This document shows positions 2,511 through 64,000 of a stretch of DNA of 64,000 bases, piece after piece. Within the stretch, counting starts at the first letter, position 1, and each line of letters starts with the position of its first letter. This DNA is from Candidatus Spyradenecus sp. (lineage in GTDB: Bacteria; Verrucomicrobiota; Kiritimatiellia; RFP12; DVOR01), in NCBI GenBank assembly GCA_045613865.1, contig JAZLBT010000026.1, positions 5,001 through 69,000 of the forward strand, written 5' to 3'. The notes below the pieces were generated by a model, which searched no databases, was not told the origin of the DNA, and saw nothing but the letters and a program-made list of their open reading frames with translations. The translations under genes and the position numbers were made by a program.

Positions 2511-4394
2511 ATGACTCAAAAAACAATTCGTTTCGTTGGTGTCTCGCGCCTCAATCAGGCTGTTTTACCCTTTTTCTTTAACCGAGCCATTTCGCTAACG
2601 CCTTCCGTGCGTCGGCGATTGTTCAAATATGCCGATGAGGCCACAGCGGTGGTGCGCGCCTACTACCGCCGGTCTATCTTTCCGCATCACTACGGACGAG
2701 ATCCCGAGAATTGGGAGGTCTCTCCTAGTGCACTAGCGGCCTACGCCTTCTTTCTACGTGGCCTCGCGCGCGGACGCATCTTTCGTTATGGTGCCATTTT
2801 CCACTCGGTCGGTATTGCGGCAGCAAGTTTAAATCACGTTGAGATTTTACAACTCCTCATTCACGAGGGAATTCCCTTGGATTTACTCCATGAAGGGGGT
2901 GACACTGTGCTTGCCACCGCGATTCGCTACCATCACGAACCTTTGGCCCACGCCCTCATGGATGCATTCCCACGTTTTATAAGCCACAAATATGCCCCGA
3001 GTGCGATGTATGCCTGTATCTTTTCAGGCACTATTCCACTCTTTTTTGACATGGTTGAGCGCGGTTTCTCTATTACCTTTTTCATGGGTTTCAAAGATTG
3101 GATTGGCACCCCCTTGAGCGCCGCTGTGCGTCGCGGACGTCATACCATCACACGCTACCTGCTTAAACACGCCTTCACTGAGGCCAATATTCTCATGCCC
3201 AAGACCTTTGAGTATGACCCGTTGCACGCTTACTTCAAATGGACTCTCTTTAAAGAAGCCATCTGTCACCAAAACCGAGAAGTCCTTGACCATCTCAAAG
3301 CGCACGGTTGGAACCCGCCAGCAAAAATAATTGGGGCCTTCTGCAGAGAAACAGGCGTCCTCGACTCCCTTACGCGCCTCAAATTCACCGAAACCGTCTA
3401 TCCCGACTTACCCTTCCGCAAACACATCCAAGCGATGTGCATGGATGAAGATAACTGTTGGTTCATTGACGATGACATTCTGCGGTATTACAACCTTCCA
3501 CTCAATGAAGATGAGGAGGACTTAACGCGTGTAAAGGCCGAGCCACACGATTGGCGCACAGATATCCCCTCTACCATGGAGGAAATTGGGGAATGTCTTG
3601 GCGAACGCCCCGAAAACATCCTGCGCCTCATCCCACGCATTCGTGAACAACTGCGCACCTATTATCAAAAAGCAGAGTTTTCCCATCACGCAGCACGTGC
3701 CTCGGTCTATGCCCTCTGCCTCGCACAACACTCTGCCGCACCCCTCTTTACTCACGAAGAATTACAAGACGCCGTGCGTCAAAACTCGGAGTTTAAGTAC
3801 TACGCTACGTCTTATCACGAACGTATCCTCGGCGTTAAGATTTTCAAAAAAAATTATGAGCGCGTCAGAAAAATTGATCATATCGTAGCACTACAAGGGA
3901 AAGACTTGCAATCCTTTCTTGATCAAAGCGATGAAGCCCTTGAAAAATATCAGACATGTTATGGCATTCCCATCATTCGTTACATCGCAGAAAAATCCAC
4001 CGTAGAAGCCCTTGAAATGTGGATGGAACGTGGTTTCTCAATTTGCGCCTGCGAAGAAATTGAATCCTGGCATCCCACACACTATGCTAACCCAGAAATT
4101 CTTGACTACTACTTCACCCACGTCGGCATGCACTACCGCACTAGATGCAATGAATACGCAGACACCCTCGCCTTCTCCATCCGTGGCGATGACGCAAGAT
4201 GCGTCAAAATCTTTGTCAAACATGGCTACCCCCTCAATCGTCGCCTCTGCGATCACGACTACCCGCTCGCCTATGCCTTCTATGAAGGCGCCGAAAAAAT
4301 GACGCATGCCCTCTACGATGTTGGCGCCAAAATGTTGGACCGAAAAGGTCGAAAAATGAACCTACCCCCATGGTTTAAACCGCTTCGCGGTTGA
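2511..4394 (+). CDS. ankyrin-repeat protein
   Basis: GDTVLATAIRYHHEPL, GTPLSAAVRRGR, DYPLAYAFYEGA-type ankyrin motifs. Confidence 0.75.
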   Translation: MTQKTIRFVGVSRLNQAVLPFFFNRAISLTPSVRRRLFKYADEATAVVRAYYRRSIFPHHYGRDPENWEVSPSALAAYAFFLRGLARGRIFRYGAIFHSVGIAAASLNHVEILQLLIHEGIPLDLLHEGGDTVLATAIRYHHEPLAHALMDAFPRFISHKYAPSAMYACIFSGTIPLFFDMVERGFSITFFMGFKDWIGTPLSAAVRRGRHTITRYLLKHAFTEANILMPKTFEYDPLHAYFKWTLFKEAICHQNREVLDHLKAHGWNPPAKIIGAFCRETGVLDSLTRLKFTETVYPDLPFRKHIQAMCMDEDNCWFIDDDILRYYNLPLNEDEEDLTRVKAEPHDWRTDIPSTMEEIGECLGERPENILRLIPRIREQLRTYYQKAEFSHHAARASVYALCLAQHSAAPLFTHEELQDAVRQNSEFKYYATSYHERILGVKIFKKNYERVRKIDHIVALQGKDLQSFLDQSDEALEKYQTCYGIPIIRYIAEKSTVEALEMWMERGFSICACEEIESWHPTHYANPEILDYYFTHVGMHYRTRCNEYADTLAFSIRGDDARCVKIFVKHGYPLNRRLCDHDYPLAYAFYEGAEKMTHALYDVGAKMLDRKGRKMNLPPWFKPLRG

Positions 4395-4731
4395 TAACTC
4401 GCTCGGCCCCATCGATATTGTTTGGGGTATTCCAGGAGACGCCAAGAATGATTACGCAGGCGGTTACGGCATTTCTCATACACTGGCTAAGCACGGAAAG
4501 GAAGCATTAGAACAAGCTCCTCTTCTTCTAGCTTATGGAAAATATTATAAGGATGTTTGGAGAAAAAACGGCTGGCTGGTTATCAAAGGTCACTGGGTCG
4601 CCGCACTTAACGAAGATAAAAACAGTAATATTTATCTTTCTACGATTTACAAATCAATAGAAAAGGCGGCTCGCTACTCGCGAAGCCGCCAAATCGAAAA
4701 CAAAGTAGGAGATGATGGCGCGACTCTCTAG
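4390..4731 (+). pseudogene. start-less PBECR (Barnase/EndoU/ColicinE5-D/RelE-like) nuclease fragment
   Basis: Frame open 4360-4731 with no ATG; reads LGPIDIVWG..GGYGISHTLAKH..IYLSTIYK, matching my recollection of the PBECR3 DIDLVWG..GYGLxHIxxKH motif; absent from the ORF track. Confidence 0.6.
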
Positions 4732-4734
4732 TGG

Positions 4735-4866
4735 ACGACTTTCCAGGGCTTCACCTTTCGGATCTTTTGTACCCACGCCGTAGCTAATGGTATACTACTT
4801 CCTGGCACCGCTACGCATTATAGCCCTCACAGCTGTAGTCTATAATGGGAGCTCCTCTTTGAACAT
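4735..4866 (-). ncRNA. candidate structured RNA 'F', convergent with the nuclease fragment (paralog of D)
   Basis: TTGACT at 4894-4899 on minus. Shares TTCAAAG, GCTCC, GTAG(A)CGGTG, GGAARTA and the 22-nt block with D. Confidence 0.65.
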
Positions 4867-5008
4867 TTATAGTGTTCCAAATCTTAAACCAAAAGTCAAG
4901 CATTTTTATCGTTTTGGAAAGAGCCATTTAAAGGCAATGTAAAGCAAGCCAACAATATTGATTGTGGTTGTGCTAAGGAGTGTAATTTGCACAGGTTCTA
5001 CTAAATGA

Positions 5009-5167
5009 CTAACTCCCCACGCACAAAGTAGTAATGTTGTCATTAAATCAACCAGTGAAAAGAATAGCGTAATGGTCTTTGTGGATAATAATGGCGAAGT
5101 ACAAGAAGCCTTTGACGTCTTCACAAAAACGACAAAAGACATTCGTAGAAGTTTAAAGGAAAAATGA
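5009..5167 (+). pseudogene. possible second C-terminal nuclease-like fragment (..NSVMVFVDNNGEVQEAFDVFTKTTKDIRRSLKEK*)
   Basis: 52 open codons, beta-hairpin-like pattern, stop abuts RNA G as the PBECR fragment abuts F; no diagnostic motif. Confidence 0.3.
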
Positions 5168-5316
5168 GTCGGTGCTGGCGGCAAGACCCACACACCGCAA
5201 TGTTCTCGTTATGCGCGTGCCCGCACAAGAACAAGGCAAAACCCTCTAGTTCATAGGGTGGCGTAGCCCAGGGAGGAACTCACGGAGCAAATGTACGCCC
5301 ACATCTCCGTTTCGTT
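5160..5316 (-). ncRNA. candidate structured RNA 'G' (paralog of E)
   Basis: Directly downstream of promoter cassette 5318-5352; atctccgttt (5303-5312) and aactcacgg (5277-5285) match E; terminal hairpin cggtg..caccg at 5170-5197. Confidence 0.6.
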
Positions 5317-5317
5317 G

Positions 5318-5352
5318 AGAATATTAAACCACAAACGATGAATGTTTGTCAA
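5318..5352 (-). promoter_or_regulatory. promoter cassette copy (TTGACA-N15-TGg-TTTAAT)
   Basis: Near-identical to 187-221 and 2204-2238. Confidence 0.7.
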
Positions 5353-5390
5353 TGAAAAAAGGTAAAAAATAGAAGGGGAAAACCGAATGA

Positions 5391-5501
5391 GTGTTTTTTA
5401 TCTTTGTCTACTATTTTTTGTGCGCCTTCCGCATGGGCTTCGGCTTTATGCTGGGCGGTATCTTAACAGTCAAATGTCTTGAGTTATTTTACGAATCTTA
5501 A
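5391..5501 (+). CDS. 36-aa hydrophobic peptide (MFFIFVYYFLCAFRMGFGFMLGGILTVKCLELFYES)
   Basis: GTG start, GAAGGGG at 5372-5378; same length and same side of the promoter cassette as 316-426. Confidence 0.35.
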   Translation: MFFIFVYYFLCAFRMGFGFMLGGILTVKCLELFYES

Positions 5502-5570
5502 TTGGCCGGGGACTTTTTTGACCTGCTTAAATTGTTTTAGGAAATAGTACGAAGGGCCGAAAAAGTGAAA
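5502..5570 (+). repeat. partial copy of the inverted-repeat element outer end
   Basis: ttggccggggactttt..gacct..aaatagtacgaagggccgaa.aagtgaa matches 41791-41858 and the reverse complement of 39459-39526. Confidence 0.8.
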
Positions 5571-5740
5571 TAGAAAGGATATTTTATCAAAATCTTAACA
5601 TTTTCGTTCGCCTATTTCACCCCATCATTGAGCGGTTTATTTTCTTGGTTTTAAGGTGTCAAATGATAACAATAAAAAGTAGATGCAATACGCCTCATAA
5701 CTGAAGGTTGCATCTACTTTACGGACATGTAATTTTAGGA

Positions 5741-6118
5741 TTAAAGTGCGTACGTTGAGATCAATTGGCAAATTTCGATCACATTTGTACGCCCAGTGAA
5801 TTGAAACTTCACTTTACCGACCGCAGAGACGTAAACTTCCAACTCGGAATCCATATCAAATGTGCCTGCCGTTTCAACGGAAAAGGTTGTGATTTTGCTA
5901 TAGGGAATTGACGTATAATCTGTCTTCTTTCCCGTAATGCCTTGTACATTGATTGCAATAATTCGCTTGTTGGTGAAGACTACACCATCACGAATGGTTT
6001 TATAGGTTCCAACAATCTCTTCACCAGCAACTAAGAATGGCGCAACCTTCTTCGCGAAAACATCGTTCTCGACTTGTTTCATTCGAGAGAAAAATCCCTT
6101 GCTATTAAAGTCTATCAT
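5741..6118 (-). CDS. bacterial PH-domain protein (bPH_1/YjqA-like)
   Basis: RDGVVFTNKRII..QGITGKK..SIPYSKI..FSVETAGTFDMDSEL. Confidence 0.9.
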   Translation of the reverse strand: MIDFNSKGFFSRMKQVENDVFAKKVAPFLVAGEEIVGTYKTIRDGVVFTNKRIIAINVQGITGKKTDYTSIPYSKITTFSVETAGTFDMDSELEVYVSAVGKVKFQFTGRTNVIEICQLISTYAL

Positions 6119-6543
6119 TTAAACATCCTCTAGCCTGTTTATTTAAACACCAAACGTAGCAGACAGGCAATAGACAACCACTTTTGGTGCTAACGAAGAC
6201 AATGGGAATCGTTGACAATTGCAAAAGGATTTAAACACGCAATGTGTATGCCCTCAAAGGTGACGTTTGTCGCTAATTTCCTAGATTTCCGCTAGCAGTT
6301 TATACGCATCACTGCAAAGAGAGAAATGTCATAACGCTCTCACAGCTTAGTTTTAGTGTAGCACATTCAAGCGTTTGCAGCAAACAAAAAAATCTTCTTC
6401 CACGTTTCTACAATTGCATTGTCGATTGTATCATGAAAATGGAGTTTTATTGGCACTTTTATATTTATATGTTAATATCAAGTAGCGAGGTGTATCGGTT
6501 TGTGCTATAATGGTCGTGTTTCTTCACGAAAGGTTTTTAGGTT

Positions 6544-7461
6544 ATGGTTTATGATATTGTGATTTTAGGCAGTGGTCCTGCAGGGTGCACAGCGGCGATT
6601 TATGCAGCGCGTGCAGGGTTTAAGCCATTGGTTCTCGAGGGGATGCAACCTGGCGGACAGTTGACGCAGACAACGGATATTGAGAATTTCCCTGGCTTTG
6701 AAAAGGGTATTAATGGCTATGATTTGGTTGTGACGATGCGTCAGCAGGCGGAACGTTTTGGCGCAGTTTTTGAAATGGATGAGTGTATCGGGGCAGATTT
6801 TTCTGGTGAGGTTAAACGCCTCGAGACGATGGTGAATGGAACGATTGAAGCGCGTGTTGTGATTTTGGCAACGGGGGCTTCGGCGCGTTGGTTGGGGCTT
6901 GAGAGTGAGAAGCGGTTGATGGGGCATGGCGTTTCGGCATGCGCGACGTGTGATGGTGCCTTTTTTAAGGGAATGGATGTCGCTGTCAATGGCGGTGGTG
7001 ATACGGCGTGTGAAGACGCGTTGTATTTATCGAAGTTGTGTAATAAGGTGACGTTGATTCATCGCCGTGATACGTTGCGCGCGAGCAAGGTGATGGCTGA
7101 TCGCGTTCTTTCTACACCGAATATTGAGATGGCGTGGAATTCAACGGTGGTTGAGGTGCTTGATCCTGCTCAGGGTGAAGTTTCGGCCGTGCGTTTGCGG
7201 AGTACTGTGGATGGTTCTGAGCGTCTTTTGCCCGTGCGTGCATTGTTTGTCGCCATTGGTCATACGCCGAATACGAAGTTTTTAGAAGGCGCACTTGATT
7301 TGGATGAACATGGGTATATTGTGACGGATGGTGTACATACGAGTGCAAAGGGTGTTTTTGCAGCGGGTGATGCACAGGATCCGTATTACAAGCAGGCAAT
7401 TATTGCGGCGGGTTCGGGTGCCGTTGCAGCACTCGAGGCTGAACGTTATTTGTTGCATTGA
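6544..7461 (+). CDS. trxB: thioredoxin-disulfide reductase
   Basis: GSGPAG, GGQL, CATCDG, GGGDTA, HRR. Confidence 0.97.
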   Translation: MVYDIVILGSGPAGCTAAIYAARAGFKPLVLEGMQPGGQLTQTTDIENFPGFEKGINGYDLVVTMRQQAERFGAVFEMDECIGADFSGEVKRLETMVNGTIEARVVILATGASARWLGLESEKRLMGHGVSACATCDGAFFKGMDVAVNGGGDTACEDALYLSKLCNKVTLIHRRDTLRASKVMADRVLSTPNIEMAWNSTVVEVLDPAQGEVSAVRLRSTVDGSERLLPVRALFVAIGHTPNTKFLEGALDLDEHGYIVTDGVHTSAKGVFAAGDAQDPYYKQAIIAAGSGAVAALEAERYLLH

Positions 7462-7541
7462 TTGAGGGCGCTCGTTGTTGAATGAGCGTTTGGATATCAC
7501 AGGGCGATAGGCTTTCAATACGTTGAAGTGAGGGTCATGGG

Positions 7542-8930
7542 ATGATCGGTCTTGCGGATAGTGTTGTTTTTACAGGGGTGAGCGGTTGCTTTGGTCATGC
7601 CGCTTCACCGCGTGCGTTTTGGAAGGCGTTGTTACGTAAGCAGTCGGCGTTTGTTCCTTTGCCCGTAGCGGGTGATGGACATACGGCCGATGAGTTGTTT
7701 CAGGGGCATCCTTTGCCGGAGATGATTGCGGCGCTCGGGGAGAATTTCGCCTGCCAGTCGGATTGGTTATCGTTGCCACCGGACTTGGGGATTGGGGATA
7801 ATCCTGATTTTTGGTTTTCCGCGCAGTTGTTGTTTGACGCGTTGGAAGATGCGTGTCTCTCACCGAATTCCCCCTCAACCGATCGTATTGCGCTTTTTAT
7901 GGGGTATGATGCGACCTTTAATCCCGCTTCGGTGAATTGGTTGTGGCATGCAAATGTGATTGCCCAGGTGGTGAGTACGTTGCAACGATTCTTCCCGAAT
8001 GCAACGCATGCTCAGATGGGAGCGATTCGTGAAAATTTGATTGAGACGTTGCCTCTGTTGAAGCCTCGTCACCTTCACCATGCACGCGGGGATGGTATTG
8101 TACGTGCGTTGGCGCAGACCTTCCGGATGTGTGATTCGGTTTATCAGTGTACGGCAGGTGAAGCTTCCGTTTTTGCAGGGTTGGATGCAGCAAGTAATGC
8201 CTTGCGTTTAGGCCAGTGTGATGTTGCCGTCGTATTGGTCTTGCAGCCACCGATTTCTCAGACGCAATTAGTGGGCGAATCATGTTTGTTGCCATTCTCG
8301 CATCATCGCACATTGCAACCTTTCACAAAAGCAGCAGATGGTACGTTGCCGGGTGAAGGCGGCGCGGCATTTGTTTTGCGGCGTTTGTCGGATGCGCGAA
8401 AGGGTGCTCAGCGAATTTATGCGAAGTTGCACTGCAGTGCTTTGCTCGCAGGTATGACGCCCGAAGAAGGCGGTTTAGAGCAAGCGCTCGAACGGTGTTT
8501 GCATCGCGCATTACGTCGTTTACCCAATGGTTTCCGTGATATTGATTATTGGGAAATGAATGCTTCTGGCGTGCCAGAAGAAGATGCGGCAGAAGAGGCA
8601 TTATTGAATCGTGTGACAGCAAATCGTGGTGCCAATATTCCACTTTTGGCGTTGGGTTCTGCGAAGACGTCGTTTGGCCATGCCTTGACAGCGGCGGGTG
8701 CTTTGGGGCTCTTAAAGGGTTTGCTGGCGATGAGTCATCGTATTTTGCCCCCATCGATTACGCCGATGGATGAGTCATTCCGTTTATGTAAGCCGGAGCA
8801 CTCGTATTATTGGGTGCAGGAGGCGCGTCCGTGGATTGCATCGTCGATGCGCCCACGACGTCTTGCGGTGTCGACGTTGTCGCGTGCTGGTCGCGCGGGT
8901 GCGGCGATTCTTGAGGAGGTGTCTGAATGA
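7542..8930 (+). CDS. PKS ketosynthase-like protein with degenerate active site (KS0/CLF-like)
   Basis: ADGTLPGEGG, LGSAKTSFGH, PRRLAVS; catalytic Cys region reads AGEAS and HGTGT reads NASGV. Confidence 0.8.
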   Translation: MIGLADSVVFTGVSGCFGHAASPRAFWKALLRKQSAFVPLPVAGDGHTADELFQGHPLPEMIAALGENFACQSDWLSLPPDLGIGDNPDFWFSAQLLFDALEDACLSPNSPSTDRIALFMGYDATFNPASVNWLWHANVIAQVVSTLQRFFPNATHAQMGAIRENLIETLPLLKPRHLHHARGDGIVRALAQTFRMCDSVYQCTAGEASVFAGLDAASNALRLGQCDVAVVLVLQPPISQTQLVGESCLLPFSHHRTLQPFTKAADGTLPGEGGAAFVLRRLSDARKGAQRIYAKLHCSALLAGMTPEEGGLEQALERCLHRALRRLPNGFRDIDYWEMNASGVPEEDAAEEALLNRVTANRGANIPLLALGSAKTSFGHALTAAGALGLLKGLLAMSHRILPPSITPMDESFRLCKPEHSYYWVQEARPWIASSMRPRRLAVSTLSRAGRAGAAILEEVSE

Positions 8931-12211: not shown

Positions 12212-12226
12212 TTCAAAGGAGTGATT

Positions 12227-12922: not shown

Positions 12923-12928
12923 CACCCC

Positions 12929-14113: not shown

Positions 14114-14127
14114 GAAAGGAGTTGTTT

Positions 14128-15480: not shown

Positions 15481-15565
15481 TCATCCATTACAATTATGCA
15501 TAATAAGTCGTGTGATGAACCTCCACGACTTATTTTTTTGTCTTTTAATTTCAAGGTGATAAAAC

Positions 15566-52031: not shown

Positions 52032-52058
52032 AACGTTTCTCCTCTCAAATAAACAAAA

Positions 52059-52328: not shown

Positions 52329-52546
52329 CTCTAAATAACGACATTCTATACGTGGACAACAAATATAGTATAATAAAATTTATCACAAAAAGCAAATCCG
52401 AAATTCAACATTCCTTCATCACATCTATTTCTCATCCAAAGGCCTTCGTTTGCCCTTCCAACCATACAAAGCGACAGCTGCACGACAAAAGGTTTGAATC
52501 AGGGGTTATTTTTTGCTACAATATATAATATATAAAGGATTTCCAT

Positions 52547-53257: not shown

Positions 53258-53275
53258 TCTTGAAAGAGGTAAAGG

Positions 53276-55706: not shown

Positions 55707-55726
55707 ACAAACTAAACAAAAACACA

Positions 55727-55762
55727 AAAACAACCTTACACGCAAAATGTAAGGTTGTTTTC
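55727..55762. terminator. bidirectional terminator
   Basis: aaaacaaccttaca..tgtaaggttgtttt. Confidence 0.85.
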
Positions 55763-55777
55763 GTTTTAAAGCCAATG

Positions 55778-56821
55778 TTAAAGAATGTAACCCTTTAACT
55801 CATCCCAAAGTTCCGTCCACAGTGTCGGTGTCAATGTCACGGATAATCGAAGTGTATGCTCTTCGCAAACAACCTGTAGCGTACTTAAAAGCGCAGCAGT
55901 TTTCGGCAAGGTGAGCCGTTGAAGCAAGGTCTCCTTGTAGTGAACAACCTCCGCTGCTAACGTTTCAAGTGTGATCCCCTCGCACGGAGAACAAACAAGA
56001 TTCAAATAACAAGAGTTCAATTCAAGCGTTGCATCAAAGGTTAACTGTTCAACATTCGCCAAGAAGGGAAAGGTCGTCTGCCAGGGTGTATAAGCAGAAA
56101 CATCGGTCATCGCTAAAATCAAATTCTTCGTTGGTGGAAGGGTCGCGTCAGGATAGAGAATCTGATGAAAGAGGGGCATTGCCTCAAGTTGAAGCATCGG
56201 AACCTCACCGCGATAATAGGCCTCTGCAGCAGGGTTTTTCTGACAAAAAGCAACAACCGCACCATTGGGCGCCGATCGACAACCCGCAAGCGTTGTATCA
56301 TTCTCTGCAACCGTCCATGCGCCAATATATCCACGTGGTTGATGATGTGTACCAATCGTTGCGAACCACTCCGAGAATGCAGACGCATCAACAAATTGCC
56401 CCTCCGCAAAGAGAAAAACGCCACCCCACGTATCCGTTGTAGACAATCGAATTCCACAACGAAGTGTCGTCCCCCCAACAATACTAGAAACGCCACCAAA
56501 TCCATCGAGAAGCGAATCCTTCTCTTCGTCATCAAACCCGCCAAACTTCTTCTTCAATGCCTTCCGAGCGGGCTTAATCGCCTTTCGCCAAAGCATTGCA
56601 GAGAAAACATCCATTGTTTGCGGGGGATGAAGTATCCCGACAATCTGCGTCCCTTCCGGCAAGGAAAAAGGTTTCCCGCCGAGTTGCTCAGGTTTCGGTA
56701 ATAAGAATAAGAGAAGCGGCTTCAGAAAGAGTAAAAGAATCACCACAACACCAACAACAAACACCCACCGCTTCCATCGATAGTGTTTGGGCGATATGGG
56801 TGTCTGTTTGTCTTGTTGCAT
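55778..56821 (-). CDS. hypothetical membrane-anchored protein
   Basis: 347-aa ORF, N-terminal TM, no recognised motif. Confidence 0.6.
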   Translation of the reverse strand: MQQDKQTPISPKHYRWKRWVFVVGVVVILLLFLKPLLLFLLPKPEQLGGKPFSLPEGTQIVGILHPPQTMDVFSAMLWRKAIKPARKALKKKFGGFDDEEKDSLLDGFGGVSSIVGGTTLRCGIRLSTTDTWGGVFLFAEGQFVDASAFSEWFATIGTHHQPRGYIGAWTVAENDTTLAGCRSAPNGAVVAFCQKNPAAEAYYRGEVPMLQLEAMPLFHQILYPDATLPPTKNLILAMTDVSAYTPWQTTFPFLANVEQLTFDATLELNSCYLNLVCSPCEGITLETLAAEVVHYKETLLQRLTLPKTAALLSTLQVVCEEHTLRLSVTLTPTLWTELWDELKGYIL

Positions 56822-56846
56822 TCGTTGAGAGGATAATACAAAGAGA

Positions 56847-58013
56847 TTAAAGGCTTGCCGTCAAGATATCAAGCACATCATCCTTTGTCAACTTCTTATA
56901 GCCGCCGTCGAGGATAATGGTAGAATCCACAATCGCAGGGAGCATCGCTTCTGTTACGCCGAGTGAACGTAAATCGAGCACAAGTCCAAGCTCACGCATC
57001 CATGATTGCATGGCCTGCAAGCCCGCCATCGCGACATCGCTATCGGATTGTCCTGCAGGTTGAATTCCCCACACGTTGATAGCAAGACGTTTAAAACGGT
57101 GTAATCCTGCGGAAAGAATCTTCTTATAATAAGCCATACTCACAGCAGAAAGGGTCATGCCATGTGTTGCATCGGTATGTGCACCCACCGCTTGACCAAG
57201 CATGTGAACCATCCAATCGGTTGTCTTACCCTGGCAAATCAACGTGTTCAATGCCCATGTCGCCGTCCACATAATATTGGAGCGTGCTTCATAATGGGTG
57301 GGTTGCTTCACAGCAATACGACTGCTGTGGATCAATGAACGCATCAATCCTTCTGCAAGATAATCACTCGTATTATCATCACTGTCCGAGAGATACTGCT
57401 CCAAGATGTGACACATAATATCATAACACCCTGCCACCATCTGATACGTGGGCAAGCTGTAGGTCAAAAGAGGATTCAAAATTGCAAAACGCGGATAAAG
57501 CGCAGGTTCAAAGACGTGACCAATCTTCATCTTTGAAGCGGTATGCGTAATCACAGAACCGCCATTCATTTCACTCCCCGTGCCGACCATTGTTAAGATC
57601 GACCCCAAAGGAATAATGGGGCACGTTACGGCCTCGCCGCGCAAAAAGTAGGTTTCCCAAGGATCCGTTGTACAATAGGTTGAAGCCGCAACAGCCTTCG
57701 CATAGTCACAGACAGATCCGCCACCAACCGCAAGCAGAAAGTCAACCTTATTGTCACGCGCAATGCGACAACCATCAAGCAACTTCTCATACGTTGGATT
57801 CGGCATTACGCCAGCATCTTCAACGATGGTCTTCCCTGCCGATTTCAAAATGGCAACCACTTGATCATAAAGCCCCGAAGCTTTAATCGACTGCTTCCCA
57901 TAAATCAACTGAACGACAGGTCCTACCTTTTGCAATTCCGGCAAGAGCTGGTCCAACGCGTGCTCACCAAAGTGCAAACGCGTTGGATTCTCAAATGTAA
58001 ACGTGCCTAACAT
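56847..58013 (-). CDS. iron-containing alcohol (butanol) dehydrogenase
   Basis: PNP, GGGSVCD, GTGSE, H..HG metal ligands. Confidence 0.92.
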   Translation of the reverse strand: MLGTFTFENPTRLHFGEHALDQLLPELQKVGPVVQLIYGKQSIKASGLYDQVVAILKSAGKTIVEDAGVMPNPTYEKLLDGCRIARDNKVDFLLAVGGGSVCDYAKAVAASTYCTTDPWETYFLRGEAVTCPIIPLGSILTMVGTGSEMNGGSVITHTASKMKIGHVFEPALYPRFAILNPLLTYSLPTYQMVAGCYDIMCHILEQYLSDSDDNTSDYLAEGLMRSLIHSSRIAVKQPTHYEARSNIMWTATWALNTLICQGKTTDWMVHMLGQAVGAHTDATHGMTLSAVSMAYYKKILSAGLHRFKRLAINVWGIQPAGQSDSDVAMAGLQAMQSWMRELGLVLDLRSLGVTEAMLPAIVDSTIILDGGYKKLTKDDVLDILTASL

Positions 58014-58022
58014 AACGTCCCT

Positions 58023-61000
58023 TTACTCTTCGCAAACAAGACGAATAGCCACATTCGCAACACGCTGCCACTGAGGATAGTGTACGCGGAGGCTCACGCG
58101 CGAGAAACGCGGGAGTAAATCCCATGCACCGCCACGTGCAACAACGTCTTGATTTGCAGCAGGGGTATTACGACCGTCATCTGCATAAGGATACGGCATA
58201 TAAGCCGATTGCGTCCATTCTGCAGCATTACCGATCATATCCTTGAGACCAAAGGCATTGGCCTTGCGCTTACCAACAATACCGAGCACCTTATCACCAT
58301 CGTTATAACGCATATCGCGGTGATAATAGTTCAACGTCTGACGCTGGAAGTCCAACTTATCCAATGCTGCATCAGCGAGGTTGGCATAAGGTGCAAAGTT
58401 GTCATTCTCACCACCCCAATAGAACGGTGTATTCGTGCCACCACGTGCAGCCCATTCCCATTCAGCTTCTGTCGGCAAACGGAACTTCTTGCCCGTCTTC
58501 TCAGAGAGCCACTTGCAGTAATCCTGAGCTTCCTGCCAAGAAACACGAACCGCCGGGAACCAAACATTGTTCATCACATCAACGCCAGGGCGCGTATGGT
58601 CCTTACCGAGTTCATCGATATAACCATTGTAGTGGTCTGGCTTGTAAGCCTTCCAGTTACGGAGAGGCACTTCAATGTCAGCCATGAGGAACGGCTTCTT
58701 AATTTCAACAACATGTGGTGCTTCATCACCATAGCCAGCCTTATCACCCATGATGAACTTACCTGCAGGAATACGCAAGAAGGTCAACGAACCACCCGGC
58801 ATATCCACCTGAACAGGCTGAGCCTTCACATCCTTCAACGGCCAACCTTCGAGCGTTGGCACCTTCGGGCGAGGCTTGCGCTTCTCAACGGGAGCATATG
58901 CAATCTTTGCCAAATCCTTCTTGGCCTGCTCAAACCCATATGCATCGGCCTCGAGAATTGGATCGTGATTCGAAACCTGATAGAGCTTGGCCCACTTCTC
59001 ACGACGAGCGCGCGATTCGTTCATACGATCATACTGCATCTGCGGGCCACGAATACCAATCCAGTTACGATGGAATTCATTTGCCCAGTTAAAGGCAAAG
59101 TCGGTCCACGTTCCCCAGAAGGGTGCATTGAGGTCAATCCACGTATAGAGACGTTCCCACTCATCATCCGTCAACGTCACCCCATGGTGACCGCGCTTCA
59201 AGAGCTGAATCAACGGCGAGGTATTTGCAGAGTACTCACCAGGATTGAACAAATGGTTGTCACTTTCAGGACCCGGACGACGCACATAAGGATTCAAATC
59301 GTGATAAGAACGCGAGAATGCACCCGCGCCACCCGGCTTCAAACCGTCACGATAAGGCAACACCACAGGATCAACATTCGCCAAGTTCGGACGGCGACCA
59401 ATCAACGACTGCTGACCATAAATGCCATCCATCTTCATATCGGTATCCGTCGTCTCATCATTATGACAACGTGCACACTTATGCGTCAAGATCGGCTGAA
59501 TGTCACGCAAGAAGTTCCATGTCGGGCCCTTCTTATCCTTCTTTGGCCATGCGTCAAGCGGACGCGCCTGCGTCAACAACGAGGGCACGTTATAAATCGA
59601 GTTCGCCGACTCATGGCAACCGGTACAAGACACACGTTCACCCGGCTGACCAACAAGCCAAGAACGCATAATCTGCAAAGCCTTCCCCTCTTCATCCAAG
59701 GGCTGAATAGCAATCGGGGTATGTGCCGGTGCAGTGAAATAAACCGAACCATCTTCATTCACAGGGGCTGTACCGAGGACATACTTCATATCCCAAGAGG
59801 ATTCTGTACCCACACCTTCGTGCGAGCCCGCCTTCACATAAGCATAGTGATAAGCAAAGACGCGAACATTCTTCACGGTACCACGCGGCACGCCACGCAA
59901 ACCAGGTCCATTGTAAATATCAGCGATATGAATCGAACATTCCTTCTCACCAGGAATAATGCTGTCGGGATAAACCGGTGGCACCTTGCGCTTGGTGAAG
60001 TGAATCGGATCGGTGTAAGAGAAACCTTCCGTCTCGCAAAGCAACGTAATATTATCGTAAATATCGATAAGATAAATACCCCAAAGACCATTTGCAGATC
60101 CACGCATTGCCGTGATAAAGAAACGACCTGCGCCATCATCACGCGGATTCGTTCCCAACGGATACGGCGTCAAGAAACGTGGCCAATCACCAGCATAGAG
60201 ATAGTCTTCGATACGTTCCGGAATCGGCTTGCCATAACCCGGCAACATCTGCTCACACCCTGCCGCTTCAGCACGTGCCTTCGACACATCAAAGAGCGCC
60301 AAACGCCCCGTCTTCGGTGCATGGTGACCCGTCACAACGCAAATAAACTTACCATTCGCCCCAGGAATCGGCAAGGGATCACCATAATGGTTCGGCCAGA
60401 AGCTATTCGAACCGAAATAAGCCAACTGACGCGTACCATCAGGGCGCATCGTCATCACAATACGCGAGAAGAAGTGCGTCAAATCGCAATATTCCCAACG
60501 CACATACATCACACGACCATCATCCGTCACACACGGCGACCAGTTCGAGTCCTGGTCAAACGTCAAACGCTCCATGGTGTTCGTCTCAGGCGAATAACGA
60601 TAGGTATTCGTCATAGCCATACGACCCGATTCACACGGAAGGCCCTGCTCAGCAGCGGTAGCCGTGATGATGAACTTACCATCGGGCAAGAAGCAACCAT
60701 CACCCACATCATAATCAACACCCGATGGCGTCACCGTTGTCGGTGCGCTACCATCCAACGCCATCTGCCACAACTTCAAACGATTCTGATCCTGCGGATC
60801 CTTACGCAAGAAGCAAACCTTATCCGCGTTCCAATGCAAATCCACACACGAAATCGTATTCGCGGGCGAATCCAAAAGGCTCTCCACCTTAGGCTGCCCC
60901 GAGGCAATATTCGAAATCTTAACAATCTTCGAGTTCAAGCCACGATTCGCTTCGAGCATATTGTAACATGCCATATAAGCCTGACCAGGGGCATCCTGAC

Positions 61001-61367
61001 GACGTGCATTAATGCCATGCTCATACTGCGTTGCGAGAATCTCCATGCCATCGAGCATCGGATACTTCAAAATTGCCGCACGCACAGCCTGCTCCAAATC
61101 CAACGCTGCCGTTGTTACACCCGACTGACGCAACGTTGCAATCGCTGCAGCCTTGCGCTCCTGAATCGTTGGGATCAACGCACGAAATGCCGCCAAATCC
61201 GCGGACTCCCCATACGTTGCTTCCCAGTCATCAGCCATACGTGTCAATGCTTCCGGCTGAATACGCTCAACACGGCGAAGAACCGCCTGCTCTGCAGGAC
61301 CCAAATCCACCGCCATCGCCGTAGCACTAAAACACAACATCATTAAAACGCTTAAGGTCGCTTTCAT
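58023..61367 (-). CDS. secreted HzsA-like + c-heme + FGE-sulfatase protein, paralog of 16207-19884
   Basis: YVRWEYCD, CTGCH, CARCH, RLPTEAEWEWAAR. Confidence 0.85.
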   Translation of the reverse strand: MKATLSVLMMLCFSATAMAVDLGPAEQAVLRRVERIQPEALTRMADDWEATYGESADLAAFRALIPTIQERKAAAIATLRQSGVTTAALDLEQAVRAAILKYPMLDGMEILATQYEHGINARRQDAPGQAYMACYNMLEANRGLNSKIVKISNIASGQPKVESLLDSPANTISCVDLHWNADKVCFLRKDPQDQNRLKLWQMALDGSAPTTVTPSGVDYDVGDGCFLPDGKFIITATAAEQGLPCESGRMAMTNTYRYSPETNTMERLTFDQDSNWSPCVTDDGRVMYVRWEYCDLTHFFSRIVMTMRPDGTRQLAYFGSNSFWPNHYGDPLPIPGANGKFICVVTGHHAPKTGRLALFDVSKARAEAAGCEQMLPGYGKPIPERIEDYLYAGDWPRFLTPYPLGTNPRDDGAGRFFITAMRGSANGLWGIYLIDIYDNITLLCETEGFSYTDPIHFTKRKVPPVYPDSIIPGEKECSIHIADIYNGPGLRGVPRGTVKNVRVFAYHYAYVKAGSHEGVGTESSWDMKYVLGTAPVNEDGSVYFTAPAHTPIAIQPLDEEGKALQIMRSWLVGQPGERVSCTGCHESANSIYNVPSLLTQARPLDAWPKKDKKGPTWNFLRDIQPILTHKCARCHNDETTDTDMKMDGIYGQQSLIGRRPNLANVDPVVLPYRDGLKPGGAGAFSRSYHDLNPYVRRPGPESDNHLFNPGEYSANTSPLIQLLKRGHHGVTLTDDEWERLYTWIDLNAPFWGTWTDFAFNWANEFHRNWIGIRGPQMQYDRMNESRARREKWAKLYQVSNHDPILEADAYGFEQAKKDLAKIAYAPVEKRKPRPKVPTLEGWPLKDVKAQPVQVDMPGGSLTFLRIPAGKFIMGDKAGYGDEAPHVVEIKKPFLMADIEVPLRNWKAYKPDHYNGYIDELGKDHTRPGVDVMNNVWFPAVRVSWQEAQDYCKWLSEKTGKKFRLPTEAEWEWAARGGTNTPFYWGGENDNFAPYANLADAALDKLDFQRQTLNYYHRDMRYNDGDKVLGIVGKRKANAFGLKDMIGNAAEWTQSAYMPYPYADDGRNTPAANQDVVARGGAWDLLPRFSRVSLRVHYPQWQRVANVAIRLVCEE

Positions 61368-61586
61368 AAAAATCCTCTTTCTTCGTCAGTTCTAGAACGA
61401 ACCTATACTAATAATACCAAAAAACGCATCTCCCGTCCACAAAAATAAATACACCCCACCTTAAAATCACCCCTCCCCCAACCAAATGAAAAACCCAAGA
61501 TTCTCAAAAAACTCATTTGGCCTTTCATCCTAAAATATGATAAAATAACGTTGAATTAATTTCCACTTTATGTAAGGACGAAAACA

Positions 61587-62384
61587 ATGAAAGTCGTACC
61601 AACCGAATTTAATGCCCCCATTGATCGCCTTCGCTGGGTACTTAAAGCTCTCCGTGCCCCTGACGGTTGCCCCTGGGATCGCGAACAAACCCTCAAATCC
61701 ATCCAGCCCTGCCTCCAAGAAGAGTGCTACGAACTCCTCTCGGCAATGGTTGACGACAACGACCTCGACAACCACCGCGAAGAACTCGGCGACGTCCTCC
61801 TCCAAGTTCTCTTCCAATGCGACATCCGCGAAGACCAAGGCAAATTCACCTTTGACGACGTCGTCAACACCCTTGCTGACAAACTCATCCGTCGTCACCC
61901 CCACGTCTTCAGCACCGTCGATGCAAAAGACACCGAAACCGTCTTGAAAAACTGGGAAACCATCAAACAAACCGAACACAAAACCCCAAAAGCCTCCGCA
62001 CTCGATGGCGTCCCCACGGCACTCCCTGCCCTTCTTAAAGCACAACGCACCCAACACAAAGCCGCAAAAGTCGGCTTCGACTGGAAAGACGCCCAAGGCC
62101 CTGAAGCAAAAATCATTGAAGAACTCGCCGAACTCCGCCAAGCCATCGAAGCTGGCAACCCTGCCGCCATTGCGGACGAATATGGCGACGTCCTCTTCTC
62201 CCTTGTCAATCTTGCCCGCCACATCAATGTCGATGCAGAGAGCGCCCTCCGCGCCTCAACAGAAAAATTCGCTCGTCGCTTCCGTGCCGTTGAAGCACGC
62301 GTTAAAGCAAGCGGACAAGAAATGAAAAAACTCTCCCTCGAAGCCCTCGATGCCATCTGGGACCAAGTCAAAGCGGAGCAATAA
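61587..62384 (+). CDS. mazG: nucleoside triphosphate pyrophosphohydrolase
   Basis: GCPWDREQT, EELGD, RRHPHVF, GFDW. Confidence 0.96.
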   Translation: MKVVPTEFNAPIDRLRWVLKALRAPDGCPWDREQTLKSIQPCLQEECYELLSAMVDDNDLDNHREELGDVLLQVLFQCDIREDQGKFTFDDVVNTLADKLIRRHPHVFSTVDAKDTETVLKNWETIKQTEHKTPKASALDGVPTALPALLKAQRTQHKAAKVGFDWKDAQGPEAKIIEELAELRQAIEAGNPAAIADEYGDVLFSLVNLARHINVDAESALRASTEKFARRFRAVEARVKASGQEMKKLSLEALDAIWDQVKAEQ

Positions 62385-62385
62385 A

Positions 62386-63246
62386 ATGACCCCTCTCTAC
62401 GAAACCTTTATCGCGCTCGACTCCGATGGTTGCATCGTCGACACCATGGCTGCAAAACAACACCAATTCTTGCAACCCCTCATGATCGAACACCTCGGCC
62501 TCACAGACGAACAGGCCGACGTCTACCGTGCATGCGCTGACTACGTCAACCTCTACTCCGTCACCCGTGGCATCTCCCGCTACAAAGCCATCCTTCTCAA
62601 CCTTGAAGCCTACAACACCCACCCCACGACCCTCGCAAAAGGCTGGACTCCCTTCCCACTCGACGACCTTCGAGCCTTCGTAGAGAGCGGCCTCCCCCTT
62701 GGCAACCCAGGCGCAGAAACCTTCCTCAAAGATCACCCCTCTGACTTCCTTCAGACAATCCTTGACTGGAGCCGCCACGTAAACGAAGCCATCATCACCT
62801 CTGGCGCAACCTTCCCCGCCTACAACGGTGCCCGCACCGCACTCATGCGCATGAAAGGCAAATCCCACAACGGCATCGTCTCCCAATCCCCCGAAGCCGT
62901 CCTCCGCGAAGACTGGGGCAGCCAAGGCCTCCTCGACTATGTGGAACAAATCGCAGGTCAAGAAAAAGGCCTCAAAGTGGCCCAACTCACCCTCCTTACC
63001 CAAGGCATTGACCCACAACGCGTGATGATGATCGGCGATGCCCCCGGCGACCTCGAAGCCGCCCGCGCCTTTGGCTGCCGCTTCTTCCCCATCATCCCTG
63101 GCGAAGAAGAAACCTCCTGGCAAGACTTCAACACCACCGTCTACGATGCCTTCCTCAACAACACCTACACCCAAGAAGAAGAAGCCAAACGCATCGCGGC
63201 CTTTGAACATCGCCTTCCCAACCATCCCCCTTGGACAACGCACTAA
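62386..63246 (+). CDS. HAD-family hydrolase
   Basis: DSDGCIVDTM, IGDAPGD. Confidence 0.88.
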   Translation: MTPLYETFIALDSDGCIVDTMAAKQHQFLQPLMIEHLGLTDEQADVYRACADYVNLYSVTRGISRYKAILLNLEAYNTHPTTLAKGWTPFPLDDLRAFVESGLPLGNPGAETFLKDHPSDFLQTILDWSRHVNEAIITSGATFPAYNGARTALMRMKGKSHNGIVSQSPEAVLREDWGSQGLLDYVEQIAGQEKGLKVAQLTLLTQGIDPQRVMMIGDAPGDLEAARAFGCRFFPIIPGEEETSWQDFNTTVYDAFLNNTYTQEEEAKRIAAFEHRLPNHPPWTTH

Positions 63247-63258
63247 AAGGAGCCCACC

Positions 63259-64000
63259 ATGTCAACGCCGACCCTTTACAACTTCTCTGCGGGCCCAGCC
63301 GTCCTCCCCCTTGCCGTCCGCGAACAACTCAAAGACGACCTCACAAACTACAACAACACCGGCCGCTCCATCATTGAAATCTCCCACCGCTCCGCGACCT
63401 ATCAAGAAATGATGGACCAAGTCATCGCCAACCTCCACCAACTCCTTAACATTGGTGAAGACCGCACCCTCCTCCTCCTCCAAGGCGGCGCCTCTGGACA
63501 ATTCGCAATGCTCCCCTACAACTTCCTCCGTGAAGGTGCTGCCGCCGACTACCTCGTCCGCGGCTACTGGGGCGAAAAAGCCGCCCAACAAGCCGCCCGC
63601 ATCGGACGCATCACCCGCCGAGAAAACCTTGACCAGTGGAACGACCAAGCCGTCTATGCCCACGTCACAACCAACGAAACCATCGCTGGCACCGCACTCC
63701 CCGAAAACTTCAACCTCCCCCCAATCCCCCTCTGCGCCGACATGAGCAGCGACATCCTCGCCGCCCCGCGCAACTACAACAACTACCACCTCCTCTATGC
63801 CGGCACTCAGAAAAATCTCGGTGTCGCAGGCCTTGCCCTCGTCGTTGCAGAAAAAGAATTCCTCTCCAAAGCACGCCGCAACCTCCCCGCGGCCTTCTGC
63901 TACCTTGAACATGCAAAAGCCAAAGGCCTCTACCACACCCCCAACGCCTTTGCCGTCTGCGCCCTCTACCGCGTCACACAATGGCTCCAAAAAGAAACCC
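63259..64000 (+). CDS. serC: phosphoserine aminotransferase (3' truncated; absent from ORF track)
   Basis: NFSAGPA, EISHRS, LQGGA, ADMSSD, YAGTQKNLG. Confidence 0.93.
   Translation, partial: MSTPTLYNFSAGPAVLPLAVREQLKDDLTNYNNTGRSIIEISHRSATYQEMMDQVIANLHQLLNIGEDRTLLLLQGGASGQFAMLPYNFLREGAAADYLVRGYWGEKAAQQAARIGRITRRENLDQWNDQAVYAHVTTNETIAGTALPENFNLPPIPLCADMSSDILAAPRNYNNYHLLYAGTQKNLGVAGLALVVAEKEFLSKARRNLPAAFCYLEHAKAKGLYHTPNAFAVCALYRVTQWLQKET

Follow-up and report, generated by a model that had tools for sequence, protein, structure and literature searches.

Position-driven saw-tooth strand asymmetry in a Candidatus Spyradenecus chromosome, with upward flips at 22-bp palindromic arrays that may be dispersed origin-like sites

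A single origin and a skew with two arms are considered the rule for bacterial chromosomes, and a saw-tooth skew is otherwise known from eukaryotic chromosomes with many origins. Why, then, does the strand composition of a 64,000-nt stretch of DNA from the gut bacterium Candidatus Spyradenecus (the window) flip twice, beside repeats? A preliminary description of this stretch had proposed that the skew flips near 5.5 kb and at 39-42 kb, where a dispersed repeat would serve as a directional initiation or helicase-loading site; its hand counts of G and C in five 60-nt lines were all exact. We addressed this question with the top-strand GC3 skew of each gene (S3) in the window and across the 1.9-Mb assembly (94.5% complete; estimated contamination 0.21%).

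S3 described a clean saw-tooth along the window (Table 1). In 1-kb windows, GC skew was between +0.20 and +0.26 at 6-9 kb and approximately 0 at 14-24 kb; it sank to between -0.19 and -0.37 at 32-39 kb, returned to between -0.01 and +0.10 at 39-46 kb, and at 61-64 kb was again low, between -0.30 and -0.37. AT skew was its mirror image. Both flips were where they had been placed: one between 4.4 and 6.5 kb, and another at 39-42 kb, where S3 jumped up before falling again to 64 kb and where the cumulative-skew minimum (39551) lay inside full copy A of a 283-nt repeat. The declines were linear rather than step-like, with slopes of -0.040 per kb in domain 1 (R2 0.94) and -0.049 per kb in domain 2 (18 genes, R2 0.79).

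Gene direction changes seven times in the window, and S3 stayed smooth through all seven changes. With gene strands backed by Pfam matches, the orientation coefficients were -0.015 (t = -0.38) in domain 1 and +0.024 (t = 0.52) in domain 2, in agreement with the earlier claim that the pattern does not stem from gene orientation. The genes on the plus strand at 61.6-64.3 kb were C-rich, as had been described, and their strand was supported by Pfam matches to MazG (E-value 2e-36), HAD (5e-9) and Aminotran_5 (3e-16), with no Pfam matches for the ORFs antisense to them; codon-usage gene calling chose the wrong strand at 62.4-64 kb. The genes of strongest skew at 34-39 kb were ddl, ftsA and ftsZ, which are not known to be especially highly expressed. 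Beyond 64 kb, the predicted further copy of the repeat did not appear; we found instead 26-nt tandem repeats followed, on the minus strand, by a 5S rRNA and the 3' end of a 23S rRNA, where the contig ended before any next flip was reached. The upstream flank of an rRNA operon, present on one contig only, also had negative skew, and skew was at its most extreme, in the window as in contig C21, just downstream of leftward rRNA operons.

Table 1. Skew domains, genes and repeat elements of the window
Feature	Position	Strand	Remarks
Flip zone 1	4395..6543		S3 -0.44 in gene 2511-4394, +0.58 in gene 6544-7461; gap J = 0.56
Partial copy (70 nt, head end) of the ~283-nt dispersed repeat	5502..5571	-	Beside flip zone 1
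Skew domain 1	6544..38845		22 genes, 11 per strand; S3 from +0.58 to -0.83, linear
22-bp palindromic unit array, two units (TCAAA-N9-TTTGA)	39310..39352		
~283-nt repeat, full copy A	39457..39740	+	Contains the cumulative-skew minimum
22-bp unit array	39740..39795		Adjoins the tail of copy A
PEP-CTERM protein gene	40142..40837	-	Between inverted copies A and B
22-nt tandem repeat	41520..41576		Adjoins copy B
~283-nt repeat, full copy B	41577..41858	-	Opposite orientation to copy A; identity 89-90%
Two 22-bp palindromic unit arrays	41856..42060		2 units at 41856-41894, 4 units at 41977-42060; single-strand DNA fold z = -2.4
21-22-nt tandem repeat	42103..42173		Same gap as the copy B arrays
Skew domain 2	42519..64000		S3 from +0.51 to -0.79; last gene extends to 64302, past the window
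MazG, HAD hydrolase and class-V aminotransferase genes	61587..64000	+	S3 -0.73 to -0.82; GC3 0.58-0.71

The saw-tooth extended genome-wide. The S3 values of adjacent genes were correlated (r = 0.68, against a maximum of 0.084 in 500 gene shuffles), and the skewness of gene-to-gene steps was 0.99 (shuffle maximum 0.13). Sharp jumps were upward in 23 cases and downward in 5 (53 and 12, respectively, in three-gene windows), and the stretches between up-jumps had a median length of 27 kb (about 10-130 kb). The flips are of the origin type suggested beforehand, C-rich to G-rich, with a sharp rise and a gradual fall. Pooled over bins of 0-3, 3-6, 6-9 and 9-12 kb, S3 on the right-hand side of up-jumps was +0.42, +0.17, +0.07 and +0.01, and on the left-hand side -0.46, -0.27, -0.15 and -0.10, the 0-3 kb bin being set in part by the jump selection itself; the impression that skew is strongest next to the flips and fades with distance was correct. 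The pooled profile of 20 domains had steep edges and a flat middle, was not strictly linear, and decayed within about 6-9 kb. GC3 was 0.49 at domain edges and fell to 0.39 in the middle, third-position GC skew reached 0.85, and local amplitudes were larger than the contig-scale skew of approximately 0.1-0.15.

Skew is explained by position and not by gene strand. Among 1334 genes, S3 was modelled as 0.019 x orientation + 0.895 x neighbour field (R2 0.44), and orientation alone gave an R2 of 0.043; the sign of the skew did not follow gene direction, as it would under a coding-strand skew driven by transcription. Genes opposed to a strong field took the sign of the field in 56 of 67 cases. At C9:15.6-16.0 kb, for example, four plus-strand housekeeping genes (S3 -0.55 to -0.73) are followed by a 473-nt spacer with a 5-unit array and then by plus-strand genes with S3 of +0.54, +0.60 and +0.42; at three other sites, Pfam agreed with the gene strand in all 10 cases tested. 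Co-orientation of genes with the field rose from 47% to 85% as the field strengthened, and tRNA genes were not co-oriented with it (23 of all 49, and 11 of the 25 at |F| >= 0.2). Intergenic skew tracked the flanking field (r = 0.70, n = 188), and 4-fold sites had G.32 / C.14 as against G.13 / C.40. Because the asymmetry is present at third codon positions, 4-fold sites and non-coding DNA and is indifferent to gene direction, it is a mutational signature. The chromosome is split into dozens of strand-asymmetry domains whose borders are sharp, origin-like and recognisable in sequence.

These borders are marked better by tandem arrays of the 22-bp palindromic unit, which flank the 283-nt repeat and are also found alone, than by the 283-nt repeat. 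We counted 74 arrays at 67 sites, with 2-10 units per site, and the exact two-unit pattern matched 41 times versus 0 for a reversed control. An array lay within 3 kb of 16 of the 23 up-jumps (4.4 expected) and within 1.5 kb of 12 of them (2.3 expected) and of none of the 5 down-jumps, and the switch point was within 300 nt of an array at 12 of the 23 sites. The 283-nt repeat was near only 6 of the 23, and at 6 strong up-jumps neither element occurred within 3 kb; the proposed genome-wide co-location of flips with the repeat sites held up against the refuting condition set beforehand, with the array as the better marker. Array-bearing gaps had a mean J of +0.40, a value reached by 0 of 20000 permutations in each of three pools; J was positive in 25 of 31 such gaps, the rise being missing in 6, and increased with unit number (rho 0.56). 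Contig ends with an array or repeat had the predicted sign in 12 of 14 cases. DNA downstream of the 283-nt copies in their own orientation was G-rich, as claimed, but so was the outward strand on the other side (head +0.105, tail +0.071; first 2 kb, n = 38 copies), and the supposed directionality was lost. Many contigs terminate in the 283-nt repeat, and contigs from other samples (depth about 2-5) break at the borders of its copies; joins across these copies are those of this assembly alone.

Array gaps had a GC content of 0.31-0.45, compared with 0.46 for the genome, long gaps being AT-rich in general, and arrays folded as single strands better than shuffles did (z -1.8 to -4.9). Of the 31 array gaps, 18 were between same-direction genes; at two sites that were read, the arrays were approximately 120-220 nt upstream of outward-pointing genes. 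Divergent gaps without arrays had no up-jump, whether 300 nt or shorter (J -0.19, n = 36) or longer (J -0.03, n = 18). The skew field is anchored at arrays and independent of promoter arrangement; a divergent promoter gap that lacks an array does not flip, which makes transcription an unlikely cause.

We tentatively favour, as quite possible, a model in which the array-marked sites are dispersed, bidirectional, origin-like starts of DNA unwinding or synthesis, secondary to oriC. Strand polarity switches, just as at a replication origin, at each of dozens of fixed cis-sites, most of them marked by arrays of the 22-bp unit in AT-rich spacers. On both sides, the strand running 5' to 3' away from the site is rich in G and poor in C and A, with a bias that peaks beside the site and fades over approximately 5-30 kb. 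Unwinding or synthesis would begin at the sites and travel outward both ways, the moving machine presumably being a replisome or helicase, and the sites would be secondary, DnaA-box-poor initiation sites besides the canonical oriC at dnaA. Near a site the outward-running strand would more often be single-stranded, like a lagging-strand template, and fork polarity would drop with distance and reverse toward the next site. The higher GC3 at domain edges fits a polarity model that spares one strand near the site, and the jump asymmetry and linear declines in the window have an origin-type geometry; local amplitudes above the contig-scale skew are not predicted by a pure polarity model, and the pooled profile is flat in mid-domain. 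[quoted passage not shown] If true, replicons would have a median of approximately 27 kb (range about 10-130 kb) in a eukaryote-like layout, with fork-polarity gradients written in the sequence.

The canonical oriC, a DnaA-box cluster at C9:157957-158101 beside dnaA, has a C-rich to G-rich switch (C9:~158 kb) like that of array sites in sign and size. DnaA boxes, searched with at most one mismatch to the consensus, were not enriched within 1 kb of arrays (45 versus 42.9 expected), no dnaA or dnaN neighbours occurred at array sites, and no recurrent gene family was found beside arrays. The genome gave no match to Rep3_N (PF01051), the sole Rep family searched, to PF03432, the sole relaxase family searched, or to the Y1 (HUH) transposase/RAYT family PF01797. 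The arrays compare with known classes as follows: a DnaA-dependent oriC fits the switch and not the box content; an iteron plasmid origin fits the tandem direct repeats, with Rep3_N and a recurrent neighbour gene absent; an oriT or conjugative nick site, expected to act in one direction, lacks PF03432 and is at odds with an effect that is two-sided whatever the repeat orientation; and REP/BIME elements with a RAYT lack PF01797. The lack of DnaA-box enrichment at arrays, of Rep3_N, PF03432 and PF01797 matches, of a conserved neighbour gene family and of tRNA co-orientation, together with the 6 of 23 up-jumps with neither array nor repeat and the 6 of 31 array gaps with no rise, speak against an origin reading.

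The pattern is also found in a relative. In G002, a low-GC, array-bearing species, the same position-driven field was seen (S3 = -0.027 x orientation + 0.862 x field, n = 59), whereas three high-GC relatives without arrays had orientation-driven skew (coefficients -0.18 to -0.28). Synteny with G002 breaks at array sites, which would suit a history of inversions or rearrangements at repeats, foreign DNA or chimeric assembly, as would the many contigs ending in the repeat and the 283-nt copies that form contig borders in other samples. Such events should leave steps, yet the gradient in domain 1 is linear; array-only flips sit in unique sequence, the excess of up- over down-jumps is unlike random rearrangement, the coding-strand skew of orthologues is kept between the species (r = 0.64, n = 55), one site is common to both genomes, and estimated contamination is low. 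We consider an origin in history or artefact very improbable. Transcription could act if arrays were strong two-way promoters or activator sites whose outward transcripts, antisense read-through included, expose the non-template strand; that strand would turn G/T-rich, which is the correct sign, and the rising co-orientation of genes with the field, the arrays upstream of outward genes at two sites and the extremes downstream of leftward rRNA operons agree with it. Its chances are nevertheless slim, given the smooth S3 across seven direction changes, the near-zero orientation coefficients in the window and genome-wide, the 54 divergent gaps with neither array nor up-jump, the array gaps between same-direction genes, housekeeping genes that face a site with fully reversed skew, the negative upstream flank of an rRNA operon, the presence of Rho, and the strongest skew at 34-39 kb in ddl, ftsA and ftsZ, where high expression is not expected.

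A non-replicative process is somewhat less improbable than transcription, although still unlikely: a nickase or helicase would load at arrays and displace the outward strand over a few kb to either side, in the manner of nick-primed strand-displacement or repair synthesis, or of rolling-circle or transfer-like processing, and the displaced strand would deaminate while single-stranded. It predicts the same sign and geometry as the origin reading, the pooled decay length of about 3-9 kb would suit a machine of limited processivity, added local exposure would fit the excess of local amplitude over contig-scale skew, and both the single-strand folding of arrays and the lack of tRNA co-orientation are compatible with it. 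However, relaxase (PF03432), Y1 HUH transposase and Rep3_N, the only families searched, were all absent; two opposed nicks per site would be required, because the effect is two-sided whatever the repeat orientation; and the declines in the window are linear over 22-32 kb, crossing zero and ending at the opposite extreme, which polarity between two sites fits better than a short-range process does.

Should the borders fire as origins, this would be the first bacterium whose multiple origins are mapped and defined by sequence, and a simple system in which to study how origins interfere, how replication terminates and how replicon size evolves. Should they not, a new process that starts at these sites exposes one strand over kilobases, shapes a third of codon positions, and probably helped to push genome GC from approximately 65-70% to 46% inside a single group of genus rank. 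Origin finders that rely on cumulative skew will fail on genomes of this kind, and codon-usage gene callers will choose the wrong strand in them.

Among known systems, REP/BIME elements are likewise short palindromes that cluster between genes at many sites; the arrays differ in their strict 22-bp phasing and in the lack of a RAYT/Y1 transposase match, and REP elements are not known to be linked to skew switches. Iteron-type plasmid origins carry, for example, 22-bp head-to-tail iterons, and the arrays resemble them in being 22-bp head-to-tail repeats (two helical turns) of 2-10 units in AT-rich spacers; unlike iterons, the units are palindromic with variable cores, chromosomal and dispersed, and are accompanied by neither Rep3_N nor a conserved neighbour. 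Array sites share the C-rich to G-rich switch of a canonical oriC, but they number dozens rather than one and lack DnaA-box enrichment and a dnaA or dnaN neighbour. Vertebrate mitochondrial DNA has a very large third-position skew, linear with position, that is ascribed to time spent single-stranded, with C->T as well as A->G changes. The outward strand of the present genome similarly gains G and loses C and A, in a two-sided pattern repeated on a 1.9-Mb chromosome, whereas the mitochondrial DNA is a single replicon with two origins. Human genomic skew is of far lower amplitude than the GC3 skew of this genome, which reaches 0.85. Some polyploid cyanobacteria offer a precedent among bacteria for chromosomes with several initiation sites, with DnaA-independent, multi-origin replication and a non-V-shaped GC skew described as irregular or collapsed, with no defined saw-tooth or marker sequence (PMC7198777). 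The present genome, in contrast, has dnaA, a DnaA-box cluster and an extreme, site-anchored skew. A further likeness is in human skew N-domains, described as megabase-sized segments bordered by abrupt upward jumps, with skew that falls linearly through zero both in intergenic DNA and in genes of either orientation, a signature of fork polarity between origins (PMC3320577). Up-jumps, falling skew and its presence in both gene orientations and intergenic DNA all recur here, in domains with a median of 27 kb and sharp borders bearing a 22-bp repeat, in a bacterium with dnaA and an ordinary oriC.

The saw-tooth in GC skew was confirmed and was stronger than the preliminary description had stated, and the five 60-nt lines whose G and C had been counted by hand were all exact on recount. 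In 1-kb windows, GC skew was +0.20 to +0.26 at 6-9 kb, crossed zero at 14-24 kb and reached -0.37 at 37-39 kb, and after the second flip (a switch from C-rich to G-rich) it recovered to between about +0.05 and +0.10 at 40-45 kb before reaching -0.37 again at 63-64 kb; AT skew mirrored GC skew throughout. The top-strand GC skew at third codon positions of individual genes (S3) ran from +0.58, +0.50 and +0.22 to -0.84 and -0.83 between 6.5 and 38.8 kb, smoothly across three changes of gene direction, and after the jump it fell from +0.51 to -0.82 across four more. Linear fits to these two domains (6544-38845 and 42519-64000) gave R2 values of 0.94 and 0.79, with orientation coefficients of -0.015 (t = -0.38) and +0.024 (t = 0.52), respectively. 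These near-zero coefficients, together with a genome-wide R2 of only 0.043 for orientation, bore out the earlier claim that gene orientation is not the cause. At the right-hand end, the coding strand of the MazG, HAD and class-V aminotransferase genes was C-rich (S3 of -0.73 to -0.82), and the antisense ORFs opposite these genes, equal to them in length, had no Pfam match.

Skew of this strength misled a codon-usage gene caller, which picked antisense ORFs at 62.4-64 kb and was dropped, as was a gene model based on codon positions 1 and 2 that did likewise. We therefore made our own genome-wide gene calls using a criterion of amino-acid composition (KL divergence), which separated 12/12 ORF/shadow pairs, with Pfam support for 10 of those 12 'true' ORFs, and gave the right strand in 10/10 cases at three other loci. 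Strands of genes in the window had Pfam backing in 10/10, 8/10 and 8/10 cases, according to the protein set submitted. Very long antisense ORFs remain open because of the skew (see the table), and one such ORF, of 1065 aa, had no Pfam match. As the codon-usage caller chose the antisense strand at 62.4-64 kb, it is possible that automatic annotation of this genome contains wrong-strand genes.

Features of the window and its right-hand flank (window positions unless stated)
Feature	Position	Strand	Remarks
Small repeat family (~45-76 nt)	186-238, 1937-1981, 2204-2279, 5277-5369		Around Sel1-repeat and ankyrin-repeat genes (0.8-4.4 kb)
~283-nt repeat, partial copy	5502-5571
tRNA-Glu/tRNA-Phe pair, tandemly duplicated	15610-15939	-	Glu copies identical; Phe copies 92% alike over the repeat
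Giant paralogue	16189-19884	+	Hydrazine-synthase-alpha-like middle domain and FGE-sulfatase domain; shares a 130-nt stretch (73% identity, inverted orientation) with the other
Cell-division cluster	34615-38845	-	ddl, unassigned gene in ftsQ position, ftsA, ftsZ; begins directly at the flip
~283-nt repeat, copy A	39457-39740	+	Paired with copy B; cargo between them a PEP-CTERM protein gene
~283-nt repeat, copy B	41577-41858	-
Giant paralogue	58023-61367	-	Same two domains
Antisense ORF	58149-61346	+	Opposite the second giant paralogue
MazG gene	61587-62384	+	Pfam 2e-36
HAD gene	62350-63246	+	Pfam
Antisense ORF	62368-63243	-
Class-V aminotransferase gene	63259 onward	+	Pfam 3e-16
Antisense ORF	63262-64038	-
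26-27-nt repeat family	65186-65324 (beyond the window; C26:70186-70324)		Also near contig ends of C21, C31, C18, C10, C4, C5

The window spans positions 5001-69000 of contig C26 in a draft assembly (1.91 Mb in 34 contigs, 94.5% complete, 0.21% contamination). At the protein level, its relatives are MAGs from uncultured Lentisphaeraceae and Kiritimatiellaeota. Across 1334 genes, S3 was described by 0.019 x orientation + 0.895 x field, where the field is the S3 of neighbouring genes, often of the same operon, and the R2 of this fit was 0.44, relative to 0.043 for orientation alone. Genes oriented against a strong field carried the field's sign in 56 of 67 cases. The S3 values of adjacent genes were correlated at r = 0.68 (the highest of 500 shuffles gave 0.084), and the steps between them were asymmetric, with a skewness of 0.99, where shuffles gave at most 0.13. 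Jumps over three-gene windows numbered 53 up and 12 down, and in a scan of all sites with 4-kb arms, up-jumps above 0.3 numbered 23 and down-jumps 5. Forty up-jump sites delimited 22 within-contig domains with a median length of 26.6 kb (range 9.6-132 kb). Intergenic DNA tracked the field (r = 0.70, n = 188), and base frequencies at 4-fold sites were G.32, C.14, A.18 and T.36 on the outward-running strand and G.13, C.40, A.20 and T.27 in the opposite configuration. Because intergenic DNA and 4-fold sites follow the field, the field is mutational, with the strand running away from a flip gaining G and losing C and A.

Tandem arrays of a 22-bp unit (TCAAA-N9-TTTGA and a further 3 nt) flank the ~283-nt repeat and also stand alone. 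We found 74 arrays, distributed over 67 sites; exact matches to the two-unit pattern numbered 41, relative to 0 for a reversed control, and the unit cores fell into a few families, of which CCCTATTGA was the most frequent core. The mean S3 jump across intergenic gaps with an array was +0.40 (n = 31; positive in 25 and above 0.3 in 19), a value reached in 0/20000 permutations (Mann-Whitney p = 6e-6), and the jump rose with unit count (rho 0.56). The 758 gaps without array or repeat had a mean jump of -0.10, and the jump across long array-free gaps stayed close to zero in all three gene arrangements: divergent, -0.03 (n = 18); tandem, +0.04 (n = 65); convergent, +0.10 (n = 14). Arrays lay within 1.5 kb of 12/23 up-jumps (2.3 expected) and within 3 kb of 16/23 (4.4 expected), and near 0/5 down-jumps. 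Of the 23 array sites where the rise was clear, 12 had their cumulative-skew minimum no more than 300 nt from the array, and in the window this minimum fell at 39551; contig ends with an array or repeat had the predicted skew sign in 12/14 cases. The cleanest case was at 15.6-16.0 kb of contig C9, where four plus-strand genes (GH38 mannosidase, AsnC regulator, aminotransferase and pseudouridine synthase; S3 of -0.55 to -0.73) precede a 473-nt spacer containing a terminator, a 48-nt duplication and five units, and the plus-strand genes after it, including isoleucyl-tRNA synthetase, have S3 values of +0.54, +0.60 and +0.42.

The preliminary description, which had read the flips as origin-like and co-located with the repeat element, was partly right in that the flips are origin-like and are tied to repeat sites, but these are chiefly the 22-bp arrays, as the ~283-nt repeat lies within 3 kb of only 6/23 up-jumps. 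The effect is also two-sided rather than directional, since the outward strand was G-rich on both sides of the ~283-nt repeat irrespective of copy orientation. Nor was the further copy expected just beyond 64 kb found; the skew extreme at this end adjoins 26-nt repeats followed, on the minus strand, by 5S rRNA and the 3' end of 23S rRNA. Contig C21 has the same arrangement, and the skew was also negative in C33, the only contig to contain the flank upstream of an rRNA operon. As both flanks are negative, the rRNA operons are ruled out as flips. The 26-27-nt tandem units form a second repeat family, which lies 3' of rRNA operons and at the ends of several contigs; one up-jump gap that lacks an array (C9:199.8 kb) contains a related motif.

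The ~283-nt repeat had 49 blastn matches in the genome, many at contig ends, with full copies 82-93% identical. Copies were often paired, 0.4-4 kb apart, inverted or direct, around short cargo, and their depth in other metagenomes was 10-100x that of their flanks; the repeat may be a miniature transposon (MITE) or a regulatory module. Rfam gave no match at 38.8-42.6 kb with E <= 0.1, and its matches across the full window were limited to four tRNAs. Near-identical window fragments were present in assembled contigs of five gut and bovine-gut metagenome runs, four of which we placed on the window as 200-500-nt fragments; at their depth of ~2-5, unpolarised change classes were roughly symmetric. 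These contigs break at repeat borders, so that the continuity seen across the ~283-nt copies is that of the draft assembly only. As no mur genes lie upstream of the ddl-ftsA-ftsZ cluster within the window, it is possible that the usual dcw (division and cell-wall) cluster was divided by the flip site.

The array pattern was found in 3/28 genomes of the genus, with 41 matches in the studied genome, 5 in G002 and 2 in G027. In G002 (46-49% GC) the field was likewise driven by position (S3 = -0.027 x orientation + 0.862 x field, n = 59), with a rise at 2 of 4 judgeable arrays. The coding-strand skew of orthologues was conserved between the two species (r = 0.64, n = 55); one array site was common to both on one flank, and synteny broke at arrays. 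Gene order between them (G002 loci L026-L030) is kept in blocks of 3-10 kb, several with borders at arrays or the ~283-nt repeat. Three 'same-genus' genomes, sampled at 120 kb each, had 64-70% GC and no arrays, and their S3 followed gene direction, with orientation coefficients of -0.18 to -0.28, while no saw-tooth was consistently present. The genus spans ~46% to ~70% GC (G001, G004 and G006, with loci L008-L025, versus the studied genome and G002), with arrays or the repeat in the low-GC members. UDG was present in 21/21 genomes searched, MutS in the studied genome and in 18/21, and RNase HI (PF00075) was found neither in the studied genome nor in any of 12 same-genus genomes searched, so that its absence is not specific to the saw-tooth lineage. 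Loss of these genes therefore does not explain the skew amplitude of the lineage.

Inversions or chimeric joins would yield steps, which the preliminary description had named as evidence against its reading; gradients were seen instead (R2 of 0.94). Sense transcription is excluded by the orientation independence of the skew and by 54 divergent array-free gaps that lack an up-jump, and a model in which skew falls 5' to 3' along each transcription unit predicts up-jumps at convergent and divergent boundaries, whereas array-free boundaries had none. On reasoning alone, we rejected double-strand-break end resection, natural transformation (entry of transforming strands) and stalling of forks at bound arrays, as the sign expected from each is opposite to that observed. 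The observed sign would be produced by a machine that starts at the sites, travels away from them in both directions and leaves the outward-running strand exposed. This machine may be a replisome, making the array sites putative origins (including initiation primed by recombination or R-loops), or it may be a displacement process started there by a nick or helicase; two-way non-coding transcription from the sites, in a genome where Rho is present, is less likely. The higher GC3 at domain edges (0.49, relative to 0.39 mid-domain) fits replication from origins with one strand spared. However, tRNA genes were not co-oriented with the field (23/49), pooled skew decay extended only ~6-9 kb, local amplitude exceeded contig-scale skew, and 6/23 strong up-jumps had no array or ~283-nt repeat within 3 kb, with no repeat common to the array-free up-jump gaps compared. 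Rep3_N (PF01051), relaxase (PF03432) and Y1 transposase domains, searched for in the studied genome, and a recurrent gene family beside the arrays were also not found, which counts against origins as well.

The literature searched contained no description of saw-tooth or N-domain skew in any bacterium, or of anything for this clade. Origins are favoured by the sharp rise and linear fall observed in the two domains of the window, which match fork-polarity N-domains already described (PMC3320577), and by some cyanobacteria, which provide a precedent for multi-origin, DnaA-independent replication with irregular skew (PMC7198777). The array sites differ from a DnaA-type oriC in that DnaA boxes were not enriched at arrays, which counts against origins, but, as a point for origins, they resemble the oriC of this genome, where a cluster of DnaA boxes adjoins dnaA (C9:157957-158101) and the same kind of skew switch occurs.
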